Shown piece after piece: positions 3,110 to 52,420 of a stretch of 58,146 bases of DNA (position 1 is its first letter; each line of letters opens with the position of its first letter). Below the pieces are notes generated by a model. The model was not told the DNA's origin. It saw only the letters and a list, made by a program, of their open reading frames with translations, and ran no database searches. The stretch comes from Patescibacteria group bacterium (GTDB lineage Bacteria; Patescibacteriota; Patescibacteriia; 2-01-FULL-39-33). Made by a program: the position numbers and the translations under genes. The stretch spans positions 1 to 58,146 of the forward strand of contig JBAZQS010000004.1 of NCBI GenBank assembly GCA_041645075.1. The letters run 5' to 3'.

Positions 3110-3142
3110 GAGACGGTTATAAAATAGTTTCATAACTATCTC
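3110..3142. repeat. GAGAT-family hairpin (both arms, short form)
   Basis: GAGACGGTTATAAAATAG..CATAACTATCTC between two minus-strand genes. Confidence 0.55.
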
Positions 3143-10004: not shown

Positions 10005-11270
10005 CTAAGTGAGCCAAATTAAAATAAGCAGGCCCAGAATTAACATGGTTAAAGCCGAAATTAGCCGCATCGTCTTGCTTTCCGACTGTTCCCATTGAGT
10101 TAAATGTTTAACCGCGACTTTATTGGCCGCCAAAAGCAAAATAATAATCAACGGCGCCACGAACATTAAATTATATAACAGCAGATAGCCGATACCGCCC
10201 CAGTAAGTGGTCTTGACCGCTAACAGGCCGATAATCGCCACATAGATGCCGCCGGAACAGGGAAAAGTGCATAAGCCGACCAGAAAGCCAAGAATAAACG
10301 CGGCCGGCAAAGTTGATTTATAAACCCACTTTTGAATTGTCTCTTTGCTATTGTGGGGAATCCGCAGTTTAATCGGAAAGCGCGGAAATAACTGGCCGAT
10401 TAAATTAATGACGCCCAAGCCAATGACTAACCAAGCGCCTAATTGAGCCATAAAATGCGGCGAATTGGTAAATAAAATTGCTTTTAAAAGACCAAAACCA
10501 ATCAGCAAATAAGCCAGATAAATCGCGGTGATATAGACCAAGCCCATTTGCCAAATCGCGGCGCGAGTTCTGCGCAAACTGAAAAGAAAAGCGATAAAAA
10601 AAAGCAAAACCGCGAAGGCGCAAGGATTAATGCCGTCTAAAAAGCCCGAAACCAAGACCACCGGCAATAAATTTTGGTATTTATTAAACTGATTTTTGAC
10701 TTTTTTAGTCAAAGATAGCTGGTCTTTGTTTTTTTCCAAATCAGTCAAATATTGGCCGATGGGCGCGTCAATCGGATAAGTCCTAATTTCGCCAGCGAAA
10801 TCATCGGCCCAAGCCGGTATGGCCCAAACCTGATAGGTCGTCGGACTGCCGTGCATTTCATCTTGATAAACAATCAGCCGTTTAAACTTTTGGCTATTTT
10901 CCGGCAAAAAAAGGTCTTTGATAATTTGCTCGGGAATATGGCCGGCTAAAATATATTGGTCGCCGATAAAAGTCATAATGTGGCTTTGCAAAGGCAAAGG
11001 CACGCCCAATTCAGTCATCAATTCATTTAATTCCGGCCGATTGCTCCGTTGGTTCAAATAGTCCTTTTTAACAAATTCGGTTATTCCTTGCTGGGTTAAG
11101 ACCTTTGGCAAATCATTATTAATATAAGCCGCGCACATGCCGCAGGCCTCGTTATAATAAATCAGGGCCTGGCTCTTGTTTAAGTGAGCGCTATGCGCCG
11201 AAACCAAAACCGGCGCGGCTAATAAAAACAGGGGGGTTAAAATTAAAAGACCAAAATTTTTTTTAATCAT
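10005..11270 (-). CDS. CcdA/DsbD_2-family thiol-disulfide transporter with N-terminal exported CGMC domain
   Basis: Signal peptide and YYNEACGMCAAY in a ~190-aa exported domain. The TM core has GINPCAF and TFPCSGG cysteines, as in CcdA/DsbD. Confidence 0.65.
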   Translation of the reverse strand: MIKKNFGLLILTPLFLLAAPVLVSAHSAHLNKSQALIYYNEACGMCAAYINNDLPKVLTQQGITEFVKKDYLNQRSNRPELNELMTELGVPLPLQSHIMTFIGDQYILAGHIPEQIIKDLFLPENSQKFKRLIVYQDEMHGSPTTYQVWAIPAWADDFAGEIRTYPIDAPIGQYLTDLEKNKDQLSLTKKVKNQFNKYQNLLPVVLVSGFLDGINPCAFAVLLFFIAFLFSLRRTRAAIWQMGLVYITAIYLAYLLIGFGLLKAILFTNSPHFMAQLGAWLVIGLGVINLIGQLFPRFPIKLRIPHNSKETIQKWVYKSTLPAAFILGFLVGLCTFPCSGGIYVAIIGLLAVKTTYWGGIGYLLLYNLMFVAPLIIILLLAANKVAVKHLTQWEQSESKTMRLISALTMLILGLLILIWLT

Positions 11271-12772: not shown

Positions 12773-13291
12773 TTATTTGACTACATTGGCGGTAATAATC
12801 AAAGCGCTGGCCGCATTATTTTTGCCGTCATCGTTGGTAGAAAAATTAATTTGACGGGTAATTTGACCGGTCGCGTCCGGACCATGGGCGTTGGGGTCAA
12901 AAATCACTTCCAAATTCGCGCTCTGGCCGGGCGGCAGTTTCGTTGACCAAAAAGCGGGGTTGGTCCCGTGACCGGACATGCCAAAAACCGGACTTTTTTC
13001 GCCCTTAATTTCTAAAACAACCGTGGTGCACATACAAGAGGTGCTGATATTGGAAATTTTTAAATCCGCGTCGCCTTCATTTTTTAAAACAAAATTCTTT
13101 TTCACCAAGCCCCGAGCCATAGAAACATCGCCAAAATCATAACGGGTGGATTCAATGACTAATTTTGCCGTTCCGGCCTGACCGGAATCGGAATTTAAAT
13201 TAGCGACCACGCCTACGGTAATGCCCCCGACAAGGAGAACCACGGCGCTAATAATTAAAATTTTCAAGCGATTATTGTTTGTTTGAGCCAT
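12773..13291 (-). CDS. DUF1573-domain exported protein
   Basis: Signal anchor; an FGDV...N.G...L.I..ISTSCMCTT pattern, as in DUF1573 (ASH/Ig-like fold). Confidence 0.65.
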   Translation of the reverse strand: MAQTNNNRLKILIISAVVLLVGGITVGVVANLNSDSGQAGTAKLVIESTRYDFGDVSMARGLVKKNFVLKNEGDADLKISNISTSCMCTTVVLEIKGEKSPVFGMSGHGTNPAFWSTKLPPGQSANLEVIFDPNAHGPDATGQITRQINFSTNDDGKNNAASALIITANVVK

Positions 13292-13299
13292 AAATTTTT

Positions 13300-13318
13300 G
13301 AGATGGTTACAAAACTAT
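13300..13318. repeat. GAGAT-family motif (single arm)
   Basis: GAGATGGTTACAAAACTAT is identical to the left TIR of the 177-bp element. It lies 8 nt upstream of the 13291 start codon. Confidence 0.55.
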
Positions 13319-13319
13319 T

Positions 13320-13829
13320 TTATTTTTTAATAACCTTGGCCCGAAGTTCAACTTCGGCCTCGGGCTTTTGGGAATCGTTAGATTTAATATAAACCACGCG
13401 GACAATTTCGCCCAAATCCATATCGTCTTGGTGAACCGCCGGGTCAAAAGTTACCGACATTTCCGCGCTTTGGCCCGGAGCGATAATTTTGTCATTTTCG
13501 GCCATGGTCGCTTTGGTGCAACCGCAAGAAGTTGAAAGACGCAAAATTTCTAAGGGCTGGTTGCCGGCATTGGCAATGGTAAAAGTTTTTTGGGCAATCT
13601 CGCCGTAAATTACCGTACCCCAGTCAAAAGCGGCGGGCGTAATTTGAATGGCTGGTCCTTGGCTTAAATTTTGATTGGCGGAATTTTCATTGGCCTCTGA
13701 ATTGTCCGTTGAGTTCAGGTTGTTAACCGCGGCCGCCTGATTATAGGTGCGATAAATACCCAAAGCCAAAGCCACTAACACGACTAAGGCCAAAAAAAAT
13801 AAAATAATTTTATTAGACATATTTTTCAA
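13320..13829 (-). CDS. DUF1573-domain exported protein (paralogue)
   Basis: FDWGTV...NAGNQPLEILRLSTSCGCTKA, the same architecture as 12773-13291. Confidence 0.65.
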   Translation of the reverse strand: MKNMSNKIILFFLALVVLVALALGIYRTYNQAAAVNNLNSTDNSEANENSANQNLSQGPAIQITPAAFDWGTVIYGEIAQKTFTIANAGNQPLEILRLSTSCGCTKATMAENDKIIAPGQSAEMSVTFDPAVHQDDMDLGEIVRVVYIKSNDSQKPEAEVELRAKVIKK

Positions 13830-19614: not shown

Positions 19615-19763
19615 TTACTTTGAATTACGAAACTCCTTCTAAACCCCCTCCCCTTTATAAGGGGAGGGTTGGGGAGGGGTAAAAATATCAGAAAAAGCAT
19701 TAACCCCCTCTTGGTCTCCCCCTTATTAAGGGGGAGAAAAATGAGTTTCGTAATTCAAAGTAA
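19615..19763. repeat. 149-bp MITE-like composite palindromic element in the groES 5' UTR
   Basis: 21-nt perfect terminal inverted repeats (TTACTTTGAATTACGAAACTC / GAGTTTCGTAATTCAAAGTAA). They enclose two G+C-rich hairpins: CCCTCCCCTT-TAT-AAGGGGAGGG and TCTCCCCCTTA-T-TAAGGGGGAGA. Confidence 0.75.
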
Positions 19764-20910: not shown

Positions 20911-22317
20911 TTATCTAAATTTAGATAATGTTATAATTTTTTTATATAACTCCAAATACTTTTTTGCCTGAATTTCTATGGTAAATTCTTGCTCGCATTT
21001 TTCTCTGGCCCGTGAACATAAATTTTGATAATTTTCATAATCCAAATCCAAAACCCACTTGATTCCACTCGCTAAATCCTCAACTTCAAACGGCCGGGCC
21101 AGATAACCGCTTTTTTGATGCTCAATCAGATCGGGCAAACCGCCGATATTAAAAGCGACCACGGGCGTGCCGCAAGCCAATGACTCCAGAACCGTATTGG
21201 GCAGATTATCCTGAATTGACGGCGCCACTAACACATCAGCGGCGCTGTAAACAATTGACAAGGCGATGTCGTCATTAAATTTGCCGAGATAATAAATGGG
21301 ACAGTTTAAGCCAATTTTTTCTTTTGGTTTAGAGGCGCCAAAAATTGCCAAACAGACCCCTCCCCAACCCGTTCCAGGGCAGAGCTGAATGCTCTCAGGG
21401 TCGCATTCATCTACGCTCGTCTTCGCCTCGCTTCTGCCCGTCTGATTACAGACCCCTTGTAAAGGGGAGGGAGAGTTACGGGAACACAAACAATCAATGG
21501 CGGATTTTAAATAGGAAAATCCCTTGCGCGGATTATCCAGTCCGTTCATCGCGCCAAAAAGAATAATTTTTTTATCCAACGGCAGATTTAAAATATTTCT
21601 GGCGATATTTTTATCCAGCGGCTTAAATATTTTCGTATTCACGCCGTAAGGAATGGTACAAATAGGATAATTTTTTCTGCCATAGGCAGACCCGCCTTTG
21701 GCGGAAAATAAATAACTTTCTTGAGCGCATTTAGTCAGCCACCGGCTGGGCGCGACCATGGTTAAATTTTTTAGATTTTTTAAAACTTTTTCTTTTCGGC
21801 GCCAAACCCACTTATCTACATCAAGGCCTGTTTGATTTTTCGGCCTATTGCCCCGATTATACCCCTCCCGATATCTTATATCGCCTTCAGCCACATAATG
21901 CTCGGCGCCGCAAAACGGCCACATATCATGAAATGTCCAGACAATGGGACAATTTATTTTTTTAAAATCCTCGGGCTTCATATAACCGCGATTAAACCAA
22001 TGGACATTGACAATATCGGGATTAATTTCGCGAAGTCGGCCGAAATCAACCGAGGAAATCACGGCCGGCGACTTAAAGGGGTCTTCTTTTTTAAATAATA
22101 AAAATCTGGCCGCGTCTTCTATGGCCGGACCGGCCAGTTGATTTAAAAATTTTTTCCATTTTGTTTCCGGACCCAAAACCGCCAAGTCATCGCTGAATTT
22201 TTTTTGGACCATCATCCGTGATTCTATTCCCAAATCAATAAGGCCACGATGCAAATTATAGGCGGGCTTTGAGGCCCCGCCTTTTATATCCGAGGTGCTG
22301 ATGATGATTATTTTCAT
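20911..22317 (-). CDS. family-4 glycosyltransferase carrying in-frame repeat insertions
   Basis: C-terminal GT-B motif NTVLESLACGTPVVAFNIGGLPD. The ~40-aa segment NSPSPLQGVCNQTGRSEAKTSVDECDPESIQLCPGTGWGGVC is encoded by a repeat element. Confidence 0.75.
   Translation of the reverse strand: MKIIIISTSDIKGGASKPAYNLHRGLIDLGIESRMMVQKKFSDDLAVLGPETKWKKFLNQLAGPAIEDAARFLLFKKEDPFKSPAVISSVDFGRLREINPDIVNVHWFNRGYMKPEDFKKINCPIVWTFHDMWPFCGAEHYVAEGDIRYREGYNRGNRPKNQTGLDVDKWVWRRKEKVLKNLKNLTMVAPSRWLTKCAQESYLFSAKGGSAYGRKNYPICTIPYGVNTKIFKPLDKNIARNILNLPLDKKIILFGAMNGLDNPRKGFSYLKSAIDCLCSRNSPSPLQGVCNQTGRSEAKTSVDECDPESIQLCPGTGWGGVCLAIFGASKPKEKIGLNCPIYYLGKFNDDIALSIVYSAADVLVAPSIQDNLPNTVLESLACGTPVVAFNIGGLPDLIEHQKSGYLARPFEVEDLASGIKWVLDLDYENYQNLCSRAREKCEQEFTIEIQAKKYLELYKKIITLSKFR
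21355..21475. repeat. ~120-bp nested G+C-rich palindromic element inside the GT4 ORF
   Basis: An outer CCCC..TT/AAGGGG-type module (as at 19650-19680) is interrupted by a core that is the reverse complement of 52320-52393: GACGGGCAGAAGCGAGGCGAAGACGAGCGTAGATGAATGCGA ... GCATTCAGCTCTGCCC. Confidence 0.75.
21672..21709. repeat. short repeat module inside the GT4 ORF (copy of the groEL 3' UTR module)
   Basis: TTTTTCTGCCATAGGCAGACCCGCCTTTGGCGGAAAAT. It encodes SAKGGSAYGRK in the host frame. Confidence 0.5.
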
Positions 22318-22332
22318 TTTAATTTAATCGCC

Positions 22333-23841
22333 TTAACTTTCAAAATCAACTTGCCTGAAAACAAACGCAAGGCCTATCCACCAAATCATAATGCCAACAT
22401 ATTGCGTCCAAAGATAATGGTCAAACAAGCCAATCAGGCCCAAAGCTGGCCACAAAACCAATCCCGCCAAATTTTTATTTTTAACGGAAAATATTATGGC
22501 GTAAAAATAAAAAAATAAAAAAATAAAAAAGCCGATAAGGCCCAGCTCCGCCCAAACCAACAAAAAAATGTTGTGAACGGGCTGGTATTCATTGGTTTTT
22601 AAATTTGGATTTTGCTTATATAAATACCAAGTATAATTGCCCAAACCCGCGCCCAACAACCATTTATCTTTGATAATTTGTTCCGCCCCTTTCCTTAAGT
22701 CCGCTCTCCGGGCCAAGCTAATCCGCTCTAAATTTTCCCGGGCGGAAAAACGGGTGAACAATAACGGCCAATAAATTACTGATAAACAGCCAATCAATAT
22801 TATAATAGACGCGGTAATCTGCCATAACTCTTTTAAATATAATTTTTTAGCCGAACCCGGCTCGGGTTTTAAATATAGAGAGATGGTGGCAAAACTATTT
22901 TGTTGCGAAATTTTTGACTTTTTGAGCGAGACAAGGAGGGCCAGTAAAAAGATATGAGCCGTAGCAGCAGCTACGGTGAGAATCTTTTTGCGCCAGCCCG
23001 ACGAAGTCGCAGCCAAAAAGGACAAATTGCAGCAAAAATAGTTTTGCCACCATCTCAAAATATAGGCGAATAGGAAAATCAAATAGCCGACGCCCGCGCC
23101 CAGCCAAGCCGAACGGGAAAAGCTGAAAAAAATTCCGGCCGAAATAATTAAAATCAAGGCGATCAATAGTAATTTCATTTTCGGCTTGGCTAAATAATAT
23201 TTAAAATAAATAATCAAAGCCAAGAAAAAACCAAGCAACAAAAAACCGCCTAAAATATTCGGGTGGGGAAAACTGCCATACGGCCTTAACCAGAAACCGC
23301 TTGCTTCAATGACTACCGCTCCGACATCGCCGGGCCGATGGCCGGCCAAGCCCAGCCATTTGTTGGCCGCGACGGCTTGAGACAAAAATTGCCCAATGGC
23401 TAAAACCGCCTGAACCGCTCCGGCCGAAACGAGCGCCCAGTTTATTTTTTTTATATTAAATTTAAAATTTAAAATCAAAAAAAATAAAATAATGCCTTCG
23501 GCCAATTTAAACCACCAATAAAATGCCAGCGGTTTATCGGCGCTCCAAAAAATTGACAGAGAGGCCCATAAGAAAAAAATCCAAATCGCCAATACCGCCA
23601 ATAATTTTTTCCTATTGATTGACTTTAAATCAATTGAATATTTTCTGGCTCCGGCCCAGACGATTAACTGTAAAATCAAAATCAGCCACAAAATAATTTC
23701 CGACCCATACAAGCCATATGTGCCATATTGCCATTTACCGCCATTTAACATACCCTCCCGCCAAATCCAAACCGTCTGCCAGGGCAAAAAAAATAAAAAT
23801 AATAAAAACAGATATTCAATGACTTTTTTAATCTTGGCCAT
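22333..23841 (-). CDS. O-antigen ligase / Wzy_C-family polytopic membrane protein with in-frame repeat insertion
   Basis: More than 10 TM helices and the FSFSRSAWLG motif. Residues RWWQNYF...NSFATIS are encoded by a 177-bp TIR element. Confidence 0.65.
   Translation of the reverse strand: MAKIKKVIEYLFLLFLFFLPWQTVWIWREGMLNGGKWQYGTYGLYGSEIILWLILILQLIVWAGARKYSIDLKSINRKKLLAVLAIWIFFLWASLSIFWSADKPLAFYWWFKLAEGIILFFLILNFKFNIKKINWALVSAGAVQAVLAIGQFLSQAVAANKWLGLAGHRPGDVGAVVIEASGFWLRPYGSFPHPNILGGFLLLGFFLALIIYFKYYLAKPKMKLLLIALILIISAGIFFSFSRSAWLGAGVGYLIFLFAYILRWWQNYFCCNLSFLAATSSGWRKKILTVAAATAHIFLLALLVSLKKSKISQQNSFATISLYLKPEPGSAKKLYLKELWQITASIIILIGCLSVIYWPLLFTRFSARENLERISLARRADLRKGAEQIIKDKWLLGAGLGNYTWYLYKQNPNLKTNEYQPVHNIFLLVWAELGLIGFFIFLFFYFYAIIFSVKNKNLAGLVLWPALGLIGLFDHYLWTQYVGIMIWWIGLAFVFRQVDFES
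22880..23056. repeat. 177-bp TIR element, genic copy (in frame in the O-antigen-ligase-like ORF)
   Basis: GAGATGGTGGCAAAACTAT ... ATAGTTTTGCCACCATCTC termini and a central CGTAGC-N4-GCTACG hairpin. Homologous to 28695-28871. Confidence 0.85.
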
Positions 23842-24766
23842 TGATTAAATGATTAATTTTTAATTTATAGTTTCGTTCAAATCCGCGGCTGCGATTGCTA
23901 TCGTGGAGTTTCAGCATTTGGCGGTTGATAATTACATCCGTGCTTTCATTTTTATCTTTTTTATCTTTCATCGCCTTCAGGCCCTCGGGTAAAATAAACA
24001 TTTGGAATTTTTCAAAATACTTTTCGGGGATAACGCCCGCGATTTTTTCTAAAATTGTTTTTATCAAACCCCGGCTTGATTTTATTTTGCGGCGACAATT
24101 TATTTGATAGGGAAACCAGGCCGGAAATTTTTCTTTGAGCCAGCGATTGGCCTCAAAAAACTCCCGGCCGATATTATCTTCCTCATAAATAAAAATAAAT
24201 TGGGCGGTACCGTAGCCATAAAAATTTTCATTGTCCGGGGATATGGCGGAGCTTAAATTCAATTTATCGCCGGCGACAAAATAACTGACGCAAATTTTAT
24301 CCCGAGAATTTTTTTTATCGGGCCTGAGATTGAAAAATTTTAAAAAAGAATTGATAAAAAAGCGACCGGACCATATTCTTCCTTGCTCGGCAATAATAAA
24401 TAAATCAACATCGCTTTCCGGCTTAGTATTGCCCAAGGACAGGGAGCCATAGACGGCGATGCCTCTAATCCAGGGCAGAACTTTCAAAAATTTAATCACC
24501 CTGATCGCCTTTTTAAATTTACCAGGCGATAAGCAATAGGATCTGAGTTTTTTATCAACCAAAAAGTCCCGGCCGGCCAAAAAATAAAAACCGTTTTTAC
24601 GGCCAATAATCCCCTCTCTTTTTAAATGGTCTAAGGCCTTCTTTAATTCTATTGGCGCCGTCAAAAAATCCAGCCACTCATGCAGGGCGAAAAAAGTAAG
24701 GGGATATTCTAACATATCAAAATAGGCAGTCGCCTTTAATATAGATTTTTCCAAGTCATTAATCAT
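23828..24766 (-). CDS. nucleotidyltransferase-domain protein (Pol-beta superfamily)
   Basis: VYGSLSLGNTKPESDVDLFII motif. It overlaps the downstream ligase gene by 14 nt. Confidence 0.5.
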   Translation of the reverse strand: MINDLEKSILKATAYFDMLEYPLTFFALHEWLDFLTAPIELKKALDHLKREGIIGRKNGFYFLAGRDFLVDKKLRSYCLSPGKFKKAIRVIKFLKVLPWIRGIAVYGSLSLGNTKPESDVDLFIIAEQGRIWSGRFFINSFLKFFNLRPDKKNSRDKICVSYFVAGDKLNLSSAISPDNENFYGYGTAQFIFIYEEDNIGREFFEANRWLKEKFPAWFPYQINCRRKIKSSRGLIKTILEKIAGVIPEKYFEKFQMFILPEGLKAMKDKKDKNESTDVIINRQMLKLHDSNRSRGFERNYKLKINHLINGQD

Positions 24767-24785: not shown

Positions 24786-24807
24786 GAGATAGTTACAAAA
24801 TTATCTC
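24786..24807. repeat. GAGAT-family motif (single arm plus short closing CTC)
   Basis: GAGATAGTTACAAAATTATCTC, 20 nt upstream of the 24766 start codon. Confidence 0.5.
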
Positions 24808-28257: not shown

Positions 28258-28629
28258 TTATTTTTCGCGGTTAAGCGCTTTTTTGCAGGCCAGGCAAAGA
28301 ATTGATTCCGGACTTATTTTTAAAACCTCAAGTTCAATTTCCTTTTGACAGCGGTCGCAAACGCCGTATTTATCTTCGGCCATTTTGGCCAAGGCCCCGT
28401 CTATATTATAACGTTCTTCCTCTAATTTTTTTTCAAAAGAAAAATTGGTGGAATAATCGGCCACTTCGGTCGCGTTATCTTCCATGGAATTGCCGTAATT
28501 GGGAAAATCGGCGTCATAATTGTCCGGCTTGCCCTCGGCGCGATGGCCGATGCTTTCCAATTGTTTTATAATTCCTGACCGGCGCTCTTTTAGCCGATTT
28601 TTTAAATCTTCTAAAATTAATGTTTCCAT
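28258..28629 (-). CDS. TraR/DksA-family C4 zinc-finger protein
   Basis: C-terminal CDRC...CLAC four-Cys zinc finger preceded by a coiled-coil-like region. Confidence 0.7.
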   Translation of the reverse strand: METLILEDLKNRLKERRSGIIKQLESIGHRAEGKPDNYDADFPNYGNSMEDNATEVADYSTNFSFEKKLEEERYNIDGALAKMAEDKYGVCDRCQKEIELEVLKISPESILCLACKKALNREK

Positions 28630-28694: not shown

Positions 28695-28871
28695 GAGATG
28701 GTTACAAAACTATTTTATCTATAAATTTAGGACTTTTTGAGCGAGACAAGGAGGGCAAGCGAAGAGATTTGAAGCGTAGCAGTAGCTACGGTGAAAATCT
28801 TTTCGCGCCAGCCCGACGAAGTCGTAGCCAAAAAGGACAAATTTAGAGAAATATAGTTTTGTAACCATCTC
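28695..28871. repeat. 177-bp TIR element, intergenic copy
   Basis: GAGATGGTTACAAAACTAT ... ATAGTTTTGTAACCATCTC termini. The same internal organisation as 22880-23056. Confidence 0.85.
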
Positions 28872-28915
28872 ATTGTCATAACTATATCAAAAAAATAAAT
28901 AAAGTGAAAGTGTCA

Positions 28916-28973
28916 ACCCCGTTAAATGATGCTTTGCCTCAATTCCGCTGAAAGCGGAATTATTTAACGGGGT
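28916..28973. repeat. two-tier hairpin
   Basis: Outer stem ACCCCGTTAAAT/ATTTAACGGGGT, a 13-nt 5' bulge, and an inner stem AATTCCGCT-GAA-AGCGGAATT. Confidence 0.5.
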
Positions 28974-28989
28974 CAAGGGGTAATTTAAG

Positions 28990-29261
28990 CAAAATTAAAG
29001 AGGCGCAAGAACCTTGCCTCCTGTTATTATATAAAATAATTTAGTGAGTGGTCTTACGCCCTTGATTCAGGCCTGGGATCGTTCCGTGTCTCACCCTTTG
29101 TGGGTAATGGCGAAAATCGCTCTCAAGCTTAATCTCTTTGTAAAAGAACGGCCTTAACCCAGTATCGGTGCGGTGCAAACCACTTTCTTTGGAGTTTGAA
29201 CAGCACCCAAAACGGCTTTACGAAAATACTGAGTAAAAAGCAGGGATTTACTATAATTTTT
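28990..29261 (-). ncRNA. candidate ~270-nt structured non-coding RNA of unknown class
   Basis: The minus strand has an extended -10 (TGTTATAAT, plus-strand 29268-29276) and a terminator (GAGGCAAGGTTCTTGCGCCTC + TTTAATTTT, 28991-29020). I could not find an ATG in the interval. It has local stems (GGTGC..GCACC, CAAAC..GTTTG, GTGAG..CTCAC) and is G+C-richer than its flanks. Confidence 0.35.
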
Positions 29262-29485
29262 GGCTGAATTATAACAAATTTCTGCCTTTTACCCTAACCT
29301 TTAGAATTCTTATCTCAATTTACTATAATATAAGTATATCACAATTTTTAGCGAAAGTCAAGATATAAATTTGTCTAATTTAAGCAATAAACCATTATTA
29401 CCCTTTATTTTATCCACTTTTTTTATTTGGGTTTTGCTGAATTTATCCACTACTTATACACATTTGTTTAAATTTAAACAAATTA

Positions 29486-33268: not shown

Positions 33269-33301
33269 GAGATAGTGATAAAATAATTTTGTCACTATCT
33301 C
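33269..33301. repeat. GAGAT-family hairpin in the pnp leader
   Basis: GAGATAGTGAtAAAAtaaTTTTgTCACTATCTC, about 15-bp arms, abutting the stop codon of the NYN gene and ~130 nt upstream of the pnp start. Confidence 0.7.
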
Positions 33302-45329: not shown

Positions 45330-48002
45330 TTATTTTAAATTATTTAATTGCTGATTTAATTTTTCTAATTTATCTTTGGTGATTTTCATTTTTTCTGTTT
45401 CGCCATTTATCACTGCTTTAGGGGCGCGACTGGCAAAATTTTTGTCGTCCAATTTTAATTCAAGGCCTTTAATGTATTTTCCCGCTTCGGTTATTTCTTT
45501 TTGTAATCTTTTTTTCTCGGCTTCCATGTCAACTATGCCGGCCAGAGAAATATAAATTTCTATTCCGCCGACAACCGCGCCAATGCTATTTTCCGGTTTG
45601 GACCCCGACGTTACGTCAAGGCGACCCGTCCCTACTTCTATATTACAACGCGCCAATTTTTTAATAATTTCTTTTTGGCTTTCAATTAATTTCTTATTTT
45701 CTTGGCTAATGATCGTCGCGCTGATAAATTTTGCCGGTTCAATTTTGTATTCACTTTTTAGATTTCTGATGGATGAAATCATTTCCTTAATCAAATTAAA
45801 ATTATTTTCGGCCTCTGATTTTTTATTTTTTTTCGCCTCGGGCCAATTTGAAACCATTAAAAAACTATTATCCAAATTTTTCCAAATCTCTTCGGTGATA
45901 AATGGACAAAATGGATGCCATAACTTTAAAACATTTTGCAAAGCATATAACAATATCTCATCTTTATTGCCCTCAATTTTGGCAATTTCAAGATACCAAT
46001 CGGCAAAATCGCTCCAAGTAAATTCATAAAGAATATCACTGGCCATGGAAAAATTATATTTATCCATCTCTGGCGTGGCCGAATTTATAACCGAATTTAA
46101 TTTAGCCAATATCCATCTATCGGCTAGGGTTTTTGCTTTCGGCGGTTTTTCAATTAATTTTATTTTCTCCACCGACGACAAAATATAGCGGGAAATGTTC
46201 CATAATTTATTGACAAAATTTCTCGCCCCTTCAACTTTCTCTTCATAAAATCTTGAATCGTTGCCCGGCGCCATGCCTTTCAATAAACTCAAACGCAGGG
46301 CGTCCGTGCCATATTTTTCTATAATCCGTAAAGGATCTAAGCCATTGCCCAGCGACTTAGAAAATTTCTTGCCATTTTTATCGCGCAATATGCCATGGAT
46401 ATAAACATCTTTAAAAGGAATATCGTCTAAGGCATAAGTGGTCAGCAAAATCATTCTCGCCATCCAGAAAAATAAAATTTCATAGCCCATCTGCATCCAA
46501 GTCGTGGGATGATATTTTTTCAAGTCCTTGGTTTTATCCGGCCAACCAAGCGTGGAAAATGTCCAAGCGCCCGAGGAAAACCAAGTATCAAGCGTGTCTT
46601 CATCTTGTGTCCAGTCCCCGCCTTTTGGTTTTGTATCGCTTACAATAATTTCGTCGCCGCGATACCAAATCGGAATGCGATGTCCCCACCAAATCTGGCG
46701 GGAAATACACCAATCGCGCAAATTATCAATCCAATGCAGATAAATATTATGGAATCTTTCGGGCGTAATCGTAATTTTTTTTTCTGGGTCGCCCTTATGG
46801 CCAATTGTAACCGCTTCACGCATTAAATCTTTCAAGCATTTATTTCGTCCGGGAATAATTTTATTTACATCAATAAACCATTGCTCCATGGGCAGGGCCT
46901 CCACCACATCGCCAAAACGATCCGAGGTGCCGACATTGTGGTCAACTTCTTCTTCGCTGATATATAAATCATTTTTTTTAAGCCACTTTACAAATTTTTC
47001 CCGCGCCTCTAAAATTGTTAAGCCCTGATATGCCGAACCCGCCTCTTCTGTCATGCGGCCGTCCGCGCCAATCACTTGAACTAAGCCAATGTCTTTATTT
47101 TTCAAATACATTTCATAATCAATGGCGCTATGGGCCGGCGTCACGCCGACCGCGCCCGTGCCATAATTTATATCAACCGCCTCATCGGCAATTATCGTAA
47201 TCACTAATGGCTTTTTGGCGCCCGCTTCGCCGCGAGGCGAGCCGACGTCAACCGTAAATTTTTGGCCGATATATTCTTTATATCTTTCGTCATTTGGATT
47301 AACGGCCACGGCTGTATCGCCCAATTTTGTTTCCGGTCTGGTCGTGGCAATCGGAATCGGAAAATCTTTGGCGTATTTGAAAGTATGGACAACGGTTTTC
47401 TGGTCAACATAAACCAATTCGTCATCCGAGCAAGTTGACTGGCCTTTGACCGACCAATTAATCACCCGATAGCCCCTGTAGATTAAACCATCTTCATACA
47501 TTCGCTTAAATAATTCATTGACCGCCTTTGACCTCGGCTCGTCAAAAGTATAGGCCAAGCGCGACCAATCGCAACTGGTGCCCATTTTTTTAATCTGGCT
47601 TAAAATCACGGCCTTGGAATTTTCCGCGTACTCGCGAACTTTTTCAAGTAATTTTTCCCGCCCCAAGTCCTGACGAGGATTTTTAATACCTTGCTTTTTC
47701 AAATCATCTTCCACTCTGGCTTGCGTCGCCACGGCCGCGTGGTCCGTGCCGGGAACAAGCAAGACGCGTTTGCCTTTCATCCTTTGATATCTAACGGCGG
47801 CATCGATTATCGACTGTTCCAGGGCATGGCCAAGATGAAGAATGCCGGTCACATTTGGCGGCGGCATGGACACCACAAATTTATCCGGCCGTTTACCGGG
47901 CAGATTATCCGGATTAAAAAATCCCGAGTCCTCCCATTTCTTATAAATAGCGTCTTCTACTTCGGCGGCGTTATAGGTTTTCGCTAATTCAATTTTTGGC
48001 AT
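45330..48002 (-). CDS. valS: valine--tRNA ligase
   Basis: PPPNVTGILHLGH and KFSKS motifs and a C-terminal coiled coil. The start is moved to MPKIELAKTYN (ATG at 48002), because the 24 upstream codons look non-homologous. Confidence 0.9.
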   Translation of the reverse strand: MPKIELAKTYNAAEVEDAIYKKWEDSGFFNPDNLPGKRPDKFVVSMPPPNVTGILHLGHALEQSIIDAAVRYQRMKGKRVLLVPGTDHAAVATQARVEDDLKKQGIKNPRQDLGREKLLEKVREYAENSKAVILSQIKKMGTSCDWSRLAYTFDEPRSKAVNELFKRMYEDGLIYRGYRVINWSVKGQSTCSDDELVYVDQKTVVHTFKYAKDFPIPIATTRPETKLGDTAVAVNPNDERYKEYIGQKFTVDVGSPRGEAGAKKPLVITIIADEAVDINYGTGAVGVTPAHSAIDYEMYLKNKDIGLVQVIGADGRMTEEAGSAYQGLTILEAREKFVKWLKKNDLYISEEEVDHNVGTSDRFGDVVEALPMEQWFIDVNKIIPGRNKCLKDLMREAVTIGHKGDPEKKITITPERFHNIYLHWIDNLRDWCISRQIWWGHRIPIWYRGDEIIVSDTKPKGGDWTQDEDTLDTWFSSGAWTFSTLGWPDKTKDLKKYHPTTWMQMGYEILFFWMARMILLTTYALDDIPFKDVYIHGILRDKNGKKFSKSLGNGLDPLRIIEKYGTDALRLSLLKGMAPGNDSRFYEEKVEGARNFVNKLWNISRYILSSVEKIKLIEKPPKAKTLADRWILAKLNSVINSATPEMDKYNFSMASDILYEFTWSDFADWYLEIAKIEGNKDEILLYALQNVLKLWHPFCPFITEEIWKNLDNSFLMVSNWPEAKKNKKSEAENNFNLIKEMISSIRNLKSEYKIEPAKFISATIISQENKKLIESQKEIIKKLARCNIEVGTGRLDVTSGSKPENSIGAVVGGIEIYISLAGIVDMEAEKKRLQKEITEAGKYIKGLELKLDDKNFASRAPKAVINGETEKMKITKDKLEKLNQQLNNLK

Positions 48003-48161
48003 AAAAAATATTTGATTTAATGTCTTAATTCTAATCAATTTGAAAATAATTTTCAAGTTCTTGCTATTTGACAAAAAACATCAAAAACGATAGAGTTGGA
48101 GCACTTACATCAGTAATGCTCTTTTTATAAAGAGTTAAAAAAAATAGGAGGTCTAAAAAAC

Positions 48162-52262: not shown

Positions 52263-52312
52263 GGACGGCTAGCTCAGTTGGTTAGAGCGTCTCGTTGACA
52301 TCGAGGAGGGTC
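52263..52312 (+). pseudogene. tRNA-Val(GAC) 5' fragment (acceptor 5' strand through the anticodon arm)
   Basis: GGACGGC-TA-GCTC-AGTTGGTTA-GAGC-G-TCTCG-TTGACAT-CGAGG. No matching T-arm or GCCGTCC 3' strand lies downstream. The fragment is followed directly by a repeat element. Confidence 0.65.
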
Positions 52313-52319
52313 GCGAAGC

Positions 52320-52393
52320 GACGGGCAGAAGCGAGGCGAAGACGAGCGTAGATGAATGCGAGCAAGTGCGAGCATTCAGCTCTGCCCGGGAAC
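52320..52393. repeat. G+C-rich hairpin module fused to the tRNA-Val fragment (reverse-complement copy inside GT4 at 21355-21475)
   Basis: GACGGGCAGAAGCGAGGCGAAGACGAGCGTAGATGAATGCGA ... GCATTCAGCTCTGCCC. Outer stem GGGCAGA/TCTGCCC, inner stem GAATGC/GCATTC. Confidence 0.75.
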
Positions 52394-52420
52394 ACAAGTT
52401 CAATTCTCATAAAACAATAA

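Follow-up and report, generated by a model that had tools for sequence, protein, structure and literature searches.

A 177-bp segment carried in frame by an O-antigen-ligase-like gene of the Patescibacteria (CPR bacteria) belongs, with a probability of about 0.78, to a non-autonomous family of MITE-like palindromic repeats found in these organisms. The segment is located in a stretch of DNA 58,146 nucleotides long, referred to below as the window. Patescibacteria have tiny, streamlined genomes, which are usually considered to be poor in mobile DNA; no report on small palindromic repeats in this group was found in the literature searched, which also yielded nothing relevant on the element, its motifs, or MITEs in CPR bacteria.

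Copies of the element in the window

The genic copy (22880..23056) and an intergenic copy (28695..28871), both in the + orientation, are each 177 bp long and identical at 149 of the 177 positions (84.2%; BLAST E 1.9e-51), which leaves 28 differing positions. These values agree with the equal length and the identity of about 85 percent estimated by eye in the original prediction. Both copies are bounded, as had been proposed, by 19-nt inverted repeats, and the two ends of each copy are perfectly complementary. The left repeat of the genic copy (22880..22898, + strand) is GAGATGGTGGCAAAACTAT and its right repeat (23038..23056, - strand) has the same two variant bases, the two changes being present in both arms (GGTGGCAAAAC / GTTTTGCCACC). 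The 19-nt repeat GAGATGGTTACAAAACTAT shows eight matches with up to three mismatches in the window, as compared with 0.03 expected. The intergenic copy lies 65 nt upstream of a DksA/TraR-type zinc-finger gene (28258-28629, minus strand) and is flanked by an exact 3-bp direct repeat, ATT/ATT.

Altogether, the window contains two full copies, three short forms, and one solo end. Short forms of 33 bp consisting of the two inverted-repeat ends alone occur between genes at 3110..3142 and 33269..33301 (no strand assigned), with exact ATT/ATT and TAT/TAT flanks, respectively. A 22-bp remnant palindrome formed from the repeat ends (24786..24807, no strand assigned) is located 19 nt upstream of the gene (23828-24766) with which the ligase operon begins, and the solo left end (13300..13322, + strand), a perfect 19-nt repeat plus a few bases, is located 8 nt upstream of the start of the gene at 12773-13291.

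Insertion into the ligase gene

The host gene (22333..23841, minus strand) encodes a Wzy_C / O-antigen-ligase-like polytopic membrane protein of 502 aa, the median length of its homologues being 444 aa. The ORF matches Pfam PF04932 (Wzy_C) with an E-value of 1.6e-13 and a score of 51.2 bits (cut-off 31.7), and the ligase motifs SRSAW, HN, and DHY align with those of 15 homologues. The minus-strand gene reads the element in antisense as 59 codons, corresponding to residues 263-321 of the ligase (RWWQNYF...SFATIS) with no stop codon; the open frame that had been claimed is thus present, to which we add that the host ORF lies on the minus strand.

The same 15 homologues show a gap precisely at the insert, in the AT-rich stretch coding for the loop that follows the SRSAW helix, the length of which varies from about 3 to 25 residues among homologues. 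The peptide was found in none of the 119 other best ligase homologues, and a syntenic relative (PNPase ... dksA-lspA ... comM ... LysM-M23 ... ligase) carries no copy of the element across 21.6 kb. Conservation of the segment in the ligases of all relatives without any intergenic copies, which had been named as evidence against an insertion, is the opposite of this pattern, 16 copies being intergenic; the ligase gene has received a copy of a structured, apparently mobile element that exists in multiple copies. A word-indexed protein search with the insert peptide gave no match, and an exhaustive search of 1.84 billion representative proteins found it in this ligase and in four spurious ORFs of 53-63 aa alone. 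Since no further real protein contains the peptide, the in-frame insertion in the ligase is a one-off event for the 177-bp family. A second repeat family is present in frame in the neighboring GT4 glycosyltransferase gene and in the ligase of the relative.

Read in the host frame and orientation, the copies of the family contain from 0 to 3 stop codons, the intergenic copy in the window having two TAA codons. At two adjacent positions (22914..22915, + strand), TT occurs only in the genic copy where the family has AG, which changes a host-frame TAA to AAA; this site is a stop in 9 of the 11 other copies. Since this single family-typical stop is absent from the genic copy, the ligase gene is open and longer by 59 residues. 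The view that stops had been purged from the genic copy may apply to the change from TCC TAA to TCA AAA, which is unique to it, but not to TAT AGA TAA versus TCG CAA CAA, which is a difference between subfamilies. Two of the 12 copies are stop-free in this frame, the second being an intergenic one (L041b), and since this copy is also open, purging after insertion and survival of an already open variant are indistinguishable.

Outside the insert, the 443 codons of the ligase are intact and every residue that is invariant in the family is present; the gene forms part of an intact envelope-biosynthesis operon. These features bear on the putative function of the altered ligase, and so does the insert itself, which adds one strongly hydrophobic stretch resembling a membrane helix (aa 286-306) and was modeled by AlphaFold with low confidence (pLDDT 55-63, dropping below 50). 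Since an odd number of strongly hydrophobic helices is added, a topology problem arises. The insert does add a hydrophobic segment, as had been suggested, but its tolerance is no more than a possibility.

Copy number and distribution

The family comprises 13 full-length and four truncated copies; besides those in the window, they come from a Gribaldobacteria MAG and from some 10 contigs of metagenomes, the contigs being of Patescibacteria type. These 17 copies are spread over about 12 contigs, and one MAG carries at least three of them. Their length ranges from 173 to 201 bp, with terminal inverted repeats of 19-20 nt, and copies from different lineages are 80-93% identical. Only the genic copy of the window lies within a long ORF (1/17), the other 16, in several genomes, being intergenic. 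Among the copies located between co-directional genes, three are in one orientation and four in the other. The intergenic copies contain stops in all six frames, apart from one with an open stretch of 67 codons. It had been proposed that a mobile structured element has colonized coding DNA in this lineage: the element is indeed multi-copy, apparently mobile, and present in coding DNA, but colonization is too strong a word for one genic copy in 17 and a peptide found in no other real protein.

The closest relative of the genic copy is an intergenic copy on another contig (L037), which is 93% identical and adjoins a threonyl-tRNA synthetase gene. Copies often fill the entire gap between two genes of an operon. 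Four copies are cut off by contig ends, and the location of several copies at contig ends is that of assembly-breaking repeats. An initial scan of genomes with an 18-mer gave 26 matches, which were real only in L008, L013, L014, and L025; the others were mostly chance matches in high-GC genomes and were discarded.

Structure of the hairpin

Upon folding, each copy forms one hairpin along the whole element and not at its ends alone. On the + strand, the energies of the two window copies are -94.6 and -89.2 kcal/mol (z -14.8 and -15.1), versus -80.5 and -73.7 kcal/mol on the - strand, so that a long hairpin forms on each strand and the + strand is favored by 14-16 kcal/mol. The stem contains 62 pairs, and 98% of the alignment cells are paired. 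Two-sided changes occur at 16 of the 62 pairs, as compared with 7.4 +/- 1.5 in shuffled alignments (0/500 as high), and fall to 0-3 when the pairing partners are slid. Maintenance of the stem by covariation, which had been proposed from the two window copies, therefore stands at the level of the family, but not as a compensation arising within the ligase gene: since the intergenic L037 copy shares the TGGC/GCCA variant of the arms, this variant characterizes a subfamily. One strand is favored by its G-U pairs, which are more numerous than C-A mismatches (21 vs 5 cells), and one G-U pair is retained in 12 of the 13 aligned copies. The sequence profile scores about 200 bits in one orientation versus about 65 in the other.

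The apical hairpin of the genic copy, CCGTAGC-AGCA-GCTACGG (22959..22976, + strand), encloses the CGTAGC-N4-GCTACG sequence that had been described, at 22960-22975; in 5 of the 13 aligned copies (4 of the 12 distinct rows), A-U takes the place of one of its G-C pairs. The core has the hairpin form GAGCGAGACAAGGAGG ... GACGRAGTCGCAGCC. Its 5' motif, GAGCGAGACAAGGAGG (22924..22939, + strand), forms purine-rich internal loops and is shared without change by 12 of the 13 aligned copies and by L031, a contig with 73% GC; its cross-stem partner is the 3' motif GACGAAGTCGCAGCC (23000..23014, + strand). The L031 hairpin, which sits upstream of RNase PH, combines GC-rich stems with matching loop sequences (16/16 and 14/15). 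The internal-loop sequences are fixed while all the helices covary, and this combination makes the element a candidate structured RNA or DNA module. The hairpin is kept by selection or by copying via a single strand, and it exceeds what transposase binding alone would need.

A small protein gene in the element (a + strand ORF behind AAGGAGG), seemingly conserved in the window copies, was rejected: it is frameshifted in the L008 subfamily, where the loop has 3 nt instead of 4 nt. With the gathering thresholds of Rfam 15, only tRNAs were detected in the window; under permissive settings, the highest-scoring match was to the precursor of a plant microRNA (29 bits vs a threshold of 249), a generic resemblance between long hairpins that was not retained.

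Target sites and mobility

Of 16 copies, short forms included, 6 have exact direct repeats of 3 bp on either side, the null rate obtained with cross-paired flanks being 0.10 (P = 0.004); the flanks of the remaining copies match at one or two of the three positions, those of the genic copy being the imperfect pair AGA/AAA. The 3-bp repeat fits the GAGA...TCTC boundaries, shifted boundaries giving 0-1 exact repeats. Since 177 + 3 = 180 bp, the frame is kept. Since the ends-only short forms have 3-bp flanking repeats of their own, the core appears to be dispensable for mobility. The AAATATAG found on each side of the genic copy was rejected as a target duplication of 8-10 bp, no other copy having a long flanking repeat; since the host DNA nearby is repetitive as well, with three occurrences of TTTTAAATATA, these flanks are read as chance or local repetition.

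Neither the window nor 47 loci contained a repeat pair at the spacing expected of an autonomous insertion sequence that bears the ends of the element, and the 29 window ORFs scanned against Pfam contained no transposase domain. No RAYT gene was noticed near any copy in a non-systematic look. An origin from a phage or a plasmid was discarded: BLAST against phage and plasmid collections gave no match, and two scans of viral contigs yielded nothing or chance matches.

Proposed origin of the genic copy

A transposase supplied in trans would recognize the ends and move the element, and its insertion into AT-rich DNA would duplicate 3 bp (weakly A-N-T). Nearly all insertions would end up between genes, in either orientation, and would often fill an intra-operon gap. 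A copy of the TGGC subfamily may have landed in the AT-rich stretch of the ligase gene coding for the length-variable loop, where the addition of 180 bp would have preserved the downstream frame. When transcribed, the hairpin would form a long double-stranded RNA, which is likely to be a target of RNase III and a modulator of expression, by analogy with the Correia elements. The matched changes in both terminal repeats and the conserved asymmetric internal loops go beyond the needs of a transposase binding double-stranded DNA. Together, the presence of the core in L031, the G-U strand bias, and the over-constrained repeats and loops give a hint that the element may function as RNA or as single-stranded DNA, for which a plain MITE model offers no explanation.

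Alternative explanations

This hint can be taken further, by assuming that the element acts first and foremost as a structured RNA with a function or as a single-stranded DNA hairpin recognized by a protein, that it is retained or spread for this function, and that the ligase copy is an accident. Covariation in all the helices with fixed loop sequences, the sharply defined orientation of the profile, the excess of G-U over C-A, the better fold of the + strand, and the L031 hairpin with its GC-rich stems all argue for this explanation, as do the promoter-like sites adjoining some copies (28908-28881 in the window, and TTGACA-N17-TAGGAT, located by eye, in L025). We nevertheless consider it unlikely, and equally so that the purine-rich loops are a binding site, for a nuclease, an RNA-binding protein, or a tyrosine (RAYT/IS200-type) transposase, for example: the copies occur in both orientations relative to host transcription, the core-less short forms are still flanked by 3-bp repeats, elements of the IS200/RAYT type make no target duplication, there is no Rfam match, and only one high-GC relative was found. 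The supposition that the 59 residues are an ordinary lineage-specific expansion of a ligase loop, the intergenic twin being a fragment or a duplicate derived from the gene, accords with a site in a loop of variable length, but it is already contradicted by the 16 other copies in unrelated intergenic contexts, by the absence of the peptide from the homologues, by the near-perfect palindrome with its terminal inverted repeats, and by the intergenic position of L037.

An assembly artefact, in the form of a repeat-induced chimeric join or a collapsed repeat, is highly improbable. The repeat does break assemblies elsewhere, as the four copies cut by contig ends indicate, but the flanks of the genic copy make up a single ligase, its two halves being collinear with 15 homologues, in the same frame, and with all the invariant residues, which the joining of unrelated loci would not rebuild, and the copy has substitutions of its own and differs from the other window copy at 28 positions; a chimeric join, which the original prediction had named among the outcomes fatal to it, is therefore unlikely. 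Somewhat greater weight may be given to the idea, doubtful as it is, that the ligase gene is dead or dying and that the open frame across a recent insertion reflects luck rather than tolerance. Two of the 12 copies are open in this frame in any case, the essentially undecayed hairpin and terminal repeats suggest a recent event, the number of strongly hydrophobic helices added is odd, and expression should suffer from an mRNA with so long a double-stranded stem; on the other side, the remaining 443 codons are intact, the operon is too, and the one family-typical stop was removed by a unique double substitution.

The hairpin might also be more than selfish DNA, with a strand-specific structured core (GAGCGAGACAAGGAGG / GACGAAGTCGCAGCC) possibly containing tandem G-A pairs, in bacteria where at least two CPR repeat families have entered cell-envelope enzymes. 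This proposal is a tentative one. It draws on the recurrence of the core, with GC-rich stems, in L031 and on its faint likeness to the core of the Neisseria Correia elements. If it were true, there would exist a cross-phylum class of hairpin elements with a module recognized by a protein or an RNase, and the ligase, its GT4 neighbor, and the ligase of the relative would illustrate an RPE-like route to protein change in ultra-small genomes.

This locus demonstrates that small palindromic repeats exist in Patescibacteria, are common to several lineages, and occasionally become part of a protein. Copies filling gaps in operons must be transcribed. Such repeats break metagenome assemblies, yield spurious small ORFs (four such calls are present in the public protein collection), and lengthen real proteins with non-homologous segments, which confuses annotation and structure prediction.

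Comparison with known repeat elements

Like prokaryotic MITEs, the element is shorter than about 300 bp, has no coding capacity of its own, and occurs in dispersed copies with terminal inverted repeats, while no autonomous insertion sequence sharing its ends was found in the window or in the 47 loci. Among the MITE-like bacterial repeats, ERIC / enterobacterial RU and pneumococcal BOX/RUP (PMC2759123, PMC2229807, PMC3049150) offer one parallel. They are likewise imperfect palindromes of 100-170 bp, transcribed with their neighbors, occasionally intragenic and open, and devoid of a transposase of their own, but their sequences and host phyla are unrelated to those studied here. The structural constraints usually reported for them are probably weaker than 16 covarying pairs out of 62 together with fixed asymmetric loops.

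The REP / BIME repeats are GTAG- or CGTC-tagged palindromes mobilized by RAYT tyrosine transposases (PMC3733652). They share with the element the intergenic location of a hairpin, the stem of which is kept by compensatory changes, and the recognition of the hairpin on one strand; they measure 20-40 bp, however, whereas the present element has 177 bp, inverted repeats that are genuinely terminal, and what looks like a duplication of 3 bp.

The Correia elements of Neisseria (CREE / NEMIS) form hairpins in mRNA, which RNase III has been shown to cleave (PMC2649163, PMC10969869). The two families resemble each other in their size class (about 70-157 bp in Correia), their several length classes including short ends-only forms, their long terminal inverted repeats, their location adjoining genes with which they are co-transcribed, and the promoter-like hexamers across the end of the element. 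They differ in the target duplication, TA in Correia versus 3 bp here, and in the pairing, which is mainly at the 26-bp ends in Correia and extends over the full length here. We compared the Correia 26-bp terminal repeat TATAG[CT]GGATTAACAAAAATCAGGAC and core, using the sequences from the supplement of PMC2649163. The resemblance is faint (CGACGAAGCCGCAG in Correia vs CGACGAAGTCGCAG in the 177-bp element): the local alignment scored 28.4, versus a mean of 17.5 (sd about 3) in shuffled sequences, and scores as high occurred in 0-1 of 500 shuffles when the genic copy was aligned and in 20-22 of 500 with the intergenic one. Homology with the Correia elements, being marginally above shuffles, is kept as a lead only.

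The in-frame residence itself is best compared with the Rickettsia palindromic elements (RPEs; Ogata et al., 2000, 2002), a precedent cited in the original prediction. According to a passage in PMC10969869, these palindromic repeats occur both between genes and in frame in protein genes of a bacterium with a reduced genome, and nearly half of the 44 R. conorii copies lie in coding genes and encode a conserved peptide. Compared by description, the present element, like the RPEs, is a palindromic repeat of about 100-180 bp that adds a peptide segment in frame and leaves the ORF unbroken. The RPEs reside frequently in frame in many unrelated genes, unlike the 177-bp element, which belongs to another host phylum, has one genic copy in 17, and encodes a peptide found in no other real protein. 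The in-frame insertion of a hairpin repeat described here is a new example of a known phenomenon, and not a new kind of system.

Structure of the Element

The copies at 22880–23056 (the genic copy) and 28695–28871 (the intergenic copy, upstream of a dksA-like gene) are each 177 bp long and align without gaps at 149 of the 177 positions (84% identity; BLAST E = 1.9e-51). Both are bounded by a 19-nt terminal inverted repeat, and the 19-nt motif GAGATGGTTACAAAACTAT matches the window at eight places with ≤3 mismatches, versus 0.03 expected. The lengths, homology, inverted repeats, hairpin and open frame put forward in the original prediction were all correct on recomputation. Upon folding, the full 177 nt formed a single long imperfect hairpin, extending beyond the two ends and the small central hairpin, with + strand energies of -94.6 and -89.2 kcal/mol in the two window copies (z -14.8 and -15.1); the - strand fold was weaker by 14–16 kcal/mol. 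Across copies the length ranges from 173 to 178 bp, apart from a 201-bp subfamily carrying a 24-nt internal insert. A small + strand ORF behind AAGGAGG was rejected as a gene, since it is frameshifted in one subfamily. No Rfam family matches the element, and no description of it was found in Rfam or in the literature searched.

In an alignment of 13 copies, the RNAalifold consensus contains 62 pairs, which are standard in 98% of the cells. Both sides have changed at 16 pairs, as compared with 7.4 ± 1.5 in column shuffles (0/500 as high) and 0–3 when the partners were slid by 1–3 columns. The covariation is located in the terminal repeats (UA/GC, AU/GC), the middle helices and the apical hairpin (GC/AU); in L041b, an intergenic copy, several coordinated changes have replaced an internal loop by perfect pairs. 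The internal loops GAGCGAGACAAGGAGG and GACGAAGTCGCAGCC are near-invariant, and the orientation of the sequence profile is sharply defined (about 200 vs about 65 bits). G-U pairs outnumber C-A mismatches (21 vs 5 cells), one G-U pair being retained in 12 of the 13 copies. Judging from these aligned sequences, the hairpin is under constraint, and this constraint exceeds what the binding of a transposase to double-stranded ends explains, which suggests a role for the element in single-stranded form, whether as RNA in the many operon transcripts that must include it or as DNA during copying.

Insertion in the Ligase Gene

The host ORF (22333–23841, minus strand) matches the Pfam O-antigen ligase family Wzy_C (E 1.6e-13), and the element is read through as residues 263–321 (RWWQNYF...NSFATIS). 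The protein is 502 aa long, as against a median of 444 aa in its best 120 homologues, and in an alignment of 15 homologues the extra residues form one block in a length-variable loop, after the helix bearing the invariant SRSAW motif. The 59-residue peptide is absent from the other 119 homologues (best E 0.19), and no element is present across 21.6 kb of the syntenic relative L046/L047 from Hainich well H43 (PNPase, 451-aa gene, dksA-like, lspA, comM-like, LysM-M23 peptidase, nucleotidyltransferase, ligase), including its ligase and the region upstream of its dksA-like gene. The genic copy is thus an insertion. A chimeric assembly seems unlikely, since a single gene continues across the insert, one half on each side, in the same frame and with all the invariant residues kept.

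The number of stops in the host frame varies from 0 to 3 across the family, and the intergenic window copy has two TAA codons. The original prediction took both of these to have been purged in the genic copy, and its stem changes to be compensatory. The nearest relative of the genic copy is L037 (93% identical), an intergenic copy adjoining a threonyl-tRNA synthetase gene, which likewise has the TGGC arm variant and, at the second of these stops, a TCG CAA CAA-type sequence without a stop. Since both features occur in this intergenic copy, they are subfamily traits rather than in-gene changes: the two identical changes do match in both arms (GGTGGC... / ...GCCACC), but they did not arise in the gene. 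The first stop is a different matter. A double substitution at 22914–22915 (TT where the family has AG), which is unique to the genic copy, converts the family-typical TCC TAA to TCA AAA at a site that is a stop in 9 of the 11 other copies, and since the site falls in an internal loop, pairing in the hairpin is unaffected. L041b, too, lacks stops in the host frame; the genic copy may have lost its stop once inserted, or a variant that was open from the start may be the one that survived.

By hydropathy, the insert is only weakly hydrophobic in its first half (about 0.5), and its one strongly hydrophobic stretch (residues 286–306, peak 2.2) is bordered by RKK and KKSK. In an AlphaFold2 model (16 sequences, mean pLDDT 77), the preceding membrane helix is lengthened to residue 279 and followed by a return helix (284–307, pLDDT 55–63) and a disordered linker (306–331). 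A helix-turn-helix would preserve the topology of the C-terminal half, whereas with one additional membrane helix that topology would be inverted. The near-perfect state of the hairpin and repeats argues that the insertion is recent. The ligase gene may be functional or impaired; that it is newly dead strikes us as improbable.

Distribution and Mobility

Searches with the core 18-mer yielded true copies in L008, from a Candidatus Gribaldobacteria MAG, and in three contigs of one Gammaproteobacteria-labelled MAG, each of which has its copy at or near an end, and a two-part pattern search yielded ten further metagenome contigs, six of them from sample Ga0265296 and one from Hainich groundwater. 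The sequence profile found 13 full-length and 4 end-truncated copies, with no additional full copy in the window. The window also carries short ends-only palindromes at 3110–3142, 24786–24807 and 33269–33301 and a solo left end at 13300–13322, all intergenic, and a 49-bp short form is present in contig L029. The best homologues of the ligase come from Patescibacteria (Buchananbacteria, Falkowbacteria and others), and the gene content of the window is ordinary housekeeping (pyruvate kinase, GroEL, PNPase, aminoacyl-tRNA synthetases, purine synthesis genes). The element is a repeat family of Patescibacteria. The three contigs of the MAG labelled uncultured Gammaproteobacteria (CAYIRS01: L013, L014 and L025, 38–44% GC) carry the 201-bp version, and either the bin label or their membership of the bin is doubtful.

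The genic copy is the only one lying within a long open frame. The others are intergenic and frequently occupy the whole gap between co-directional genes, leaving spacers of 9 and 3 nt in L008 and of 8 and 1 nt in L041. Relative to such genes, three copies are in one orientation and four in the other. Among 5.8 billion proteins searched by word index, no other one carried the peptide. When 1.84 billion representatives were searched exhaustively with HMMER, the only matches were this ligase and four ORFs of 53–63 aa from a public protein collection (P0121–P0124; E 1.8e-13 to 4.3e-4), which most likely reflect spurious gene calling where the repeat lies between genes. To say that the element has colonised coding DNA in this lineage is an overstatement for this family.

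With the boundaries set at GAGA...TCTC, exact 3-bp direct repeats (ATT, TTT, ATT and AGT in element orientation) flank 4 of the 12 independent full-length copies (P = 0.01); with the short forms included, they flank 6 of 16 (P = 0.004 vs cross-paired flanks). Other repeat lengths or shifted boundaries gave 0–1 exact matches. The flanking triplets of the genic copy, AGA/AAA, agree at two of three positions. A longer AAATATAG repeat at this copy was rejected as a target duplication, since no other copy shows one and the host sequence is locally repetitive. The ends seem to be sufficient for movement, since short forms without the core have flanking repeats of their own, and such movement would fit mobilisation in trans, as for MITEs. 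If 177 bp were inserted with a 3-bp duplication, 180 bp (60 codons) would be added, and the downstream frame would thus be preserved automatically.

Other Repeats and Neighboring Features

A second repeat family, which is GC-rich and unrelated to the 177-bp element, has three occurrences in coding DNA within the material examined. It is present at 21354–21470, inside the minus-strand GT4 glycosyltransferase ORF (20911–22317) next to the ligase; at 52263–52400, inside a disrupted tRNA-Val-like sequence; and at 10794–10907 of L046, in frame in the relative's ligase P0003 (75% over 117 nt). A 42-nt perfect inverted match joins the interior of the GT4 gene to the tRNA-Val-like sequence, which has an intact tRNA-Val(GAC) gene on either side and was called by neither ARAGORN nor Rfam. 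The P0003 insert (about 85 residues) has a long-hairpin fold and occupies a loop other than that of the window ligase; compared with a solved GT4 structure, the window glycosyltransferase is longer at the repeat by about 27 residues or more.

Another intergenic element, of about 149 bp (19615–19763), lies downstream of groEL. Its inverted ends span 35 nt with 86% complementarity, and it contains CCCCTCCCC...GGGGAGGG hairpins. G/C-run hairpins resembling these border the second repeat family, and they appear to be translated in the L037 threonyl-tRNA synthetase (PLPEGGPRGGG...). The 614 nt at 28872–29485, between the intergenic copy and a 455-aa gene, lack any ORF of at least 60 aa; on the minus strand they carry a strong promoter-like site (29361–29333, TTGACT-17-TATACT with TG). 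A permissive Rfam search of this region was empty, and the syntenic relative has a gap of comparable length with little sequence similarity; an undescribed non-coding RNA could be encoded here. In that relative, two genes downstream of the ligase, a bAvd gene, a 213-aa gene and a short RVT_1 reverse-transcriptase gene (L046/L047 13416–14863) look like a diversity-generating retroelement. In the valyl-tRNA synthetase (45330–48074, 914 aa), the class-I domain Pfam match is split into two stretches, residues 43–478 spanning profile positions 2–256 of 414, and the enzyme possibly harbours another inserted segment.

Comparison with Known Elements

Of most interest in these data are how strongly the structure is constrained, the cross-phylum core, and a hint of several repeat families built into CPR envelope enzymes. 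A wider family of hairpin elements may be marked by a GC-rich hairpin at 1290–1420 of L031 (the 73%-GC metagenome contig Ga0164241_10012149), in the 169-nt intergenic stretch ahead of an RNase PH gene. Its loops GAGCGAGACAAGGAGG and GACGGAGTCGCAGCC (16/16 and 14/15 bases matching the 177-bp element) occupy the same structural positions as there, on different stems, and a chance match seems unlikely since the second motif lay outside the search pattern; the L031 hairpin has no match in Rfam.

In behaviour, the element most closely resembles Correia, ERIC and the Rickettsia palindromic elements (RPEs). Its sequence was compared with published copies of the Neisseria Correia element (...GACAAGGCGACGAAGCCGCAGAC...; PMC2649163 supplement). 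The alignment scores were only marginally above those of shuffles, of which 0–1 of 500 matched the score of the genic copy and 20–22 of 500 that of the intergenic copy, so that the sequence resemblance is a lead rather than a finding. The 177-bp element differs from Correia in its target site, without a clear sequence match, and from RPEs in its habit, since RPEs habitually live in genes and this family does not. No transposase is present among the window ORFs scanned, and no autonomous partner was found in the window or in the 47 loci searched. Like a MITE, the element is small, has inverted ends, occurs in multiple copies and lacks a coding capacity of its own; the exact 3-bp flanking repeats at 6/16 copies suggest a target duplication. 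It acts like a bacterial MITE.
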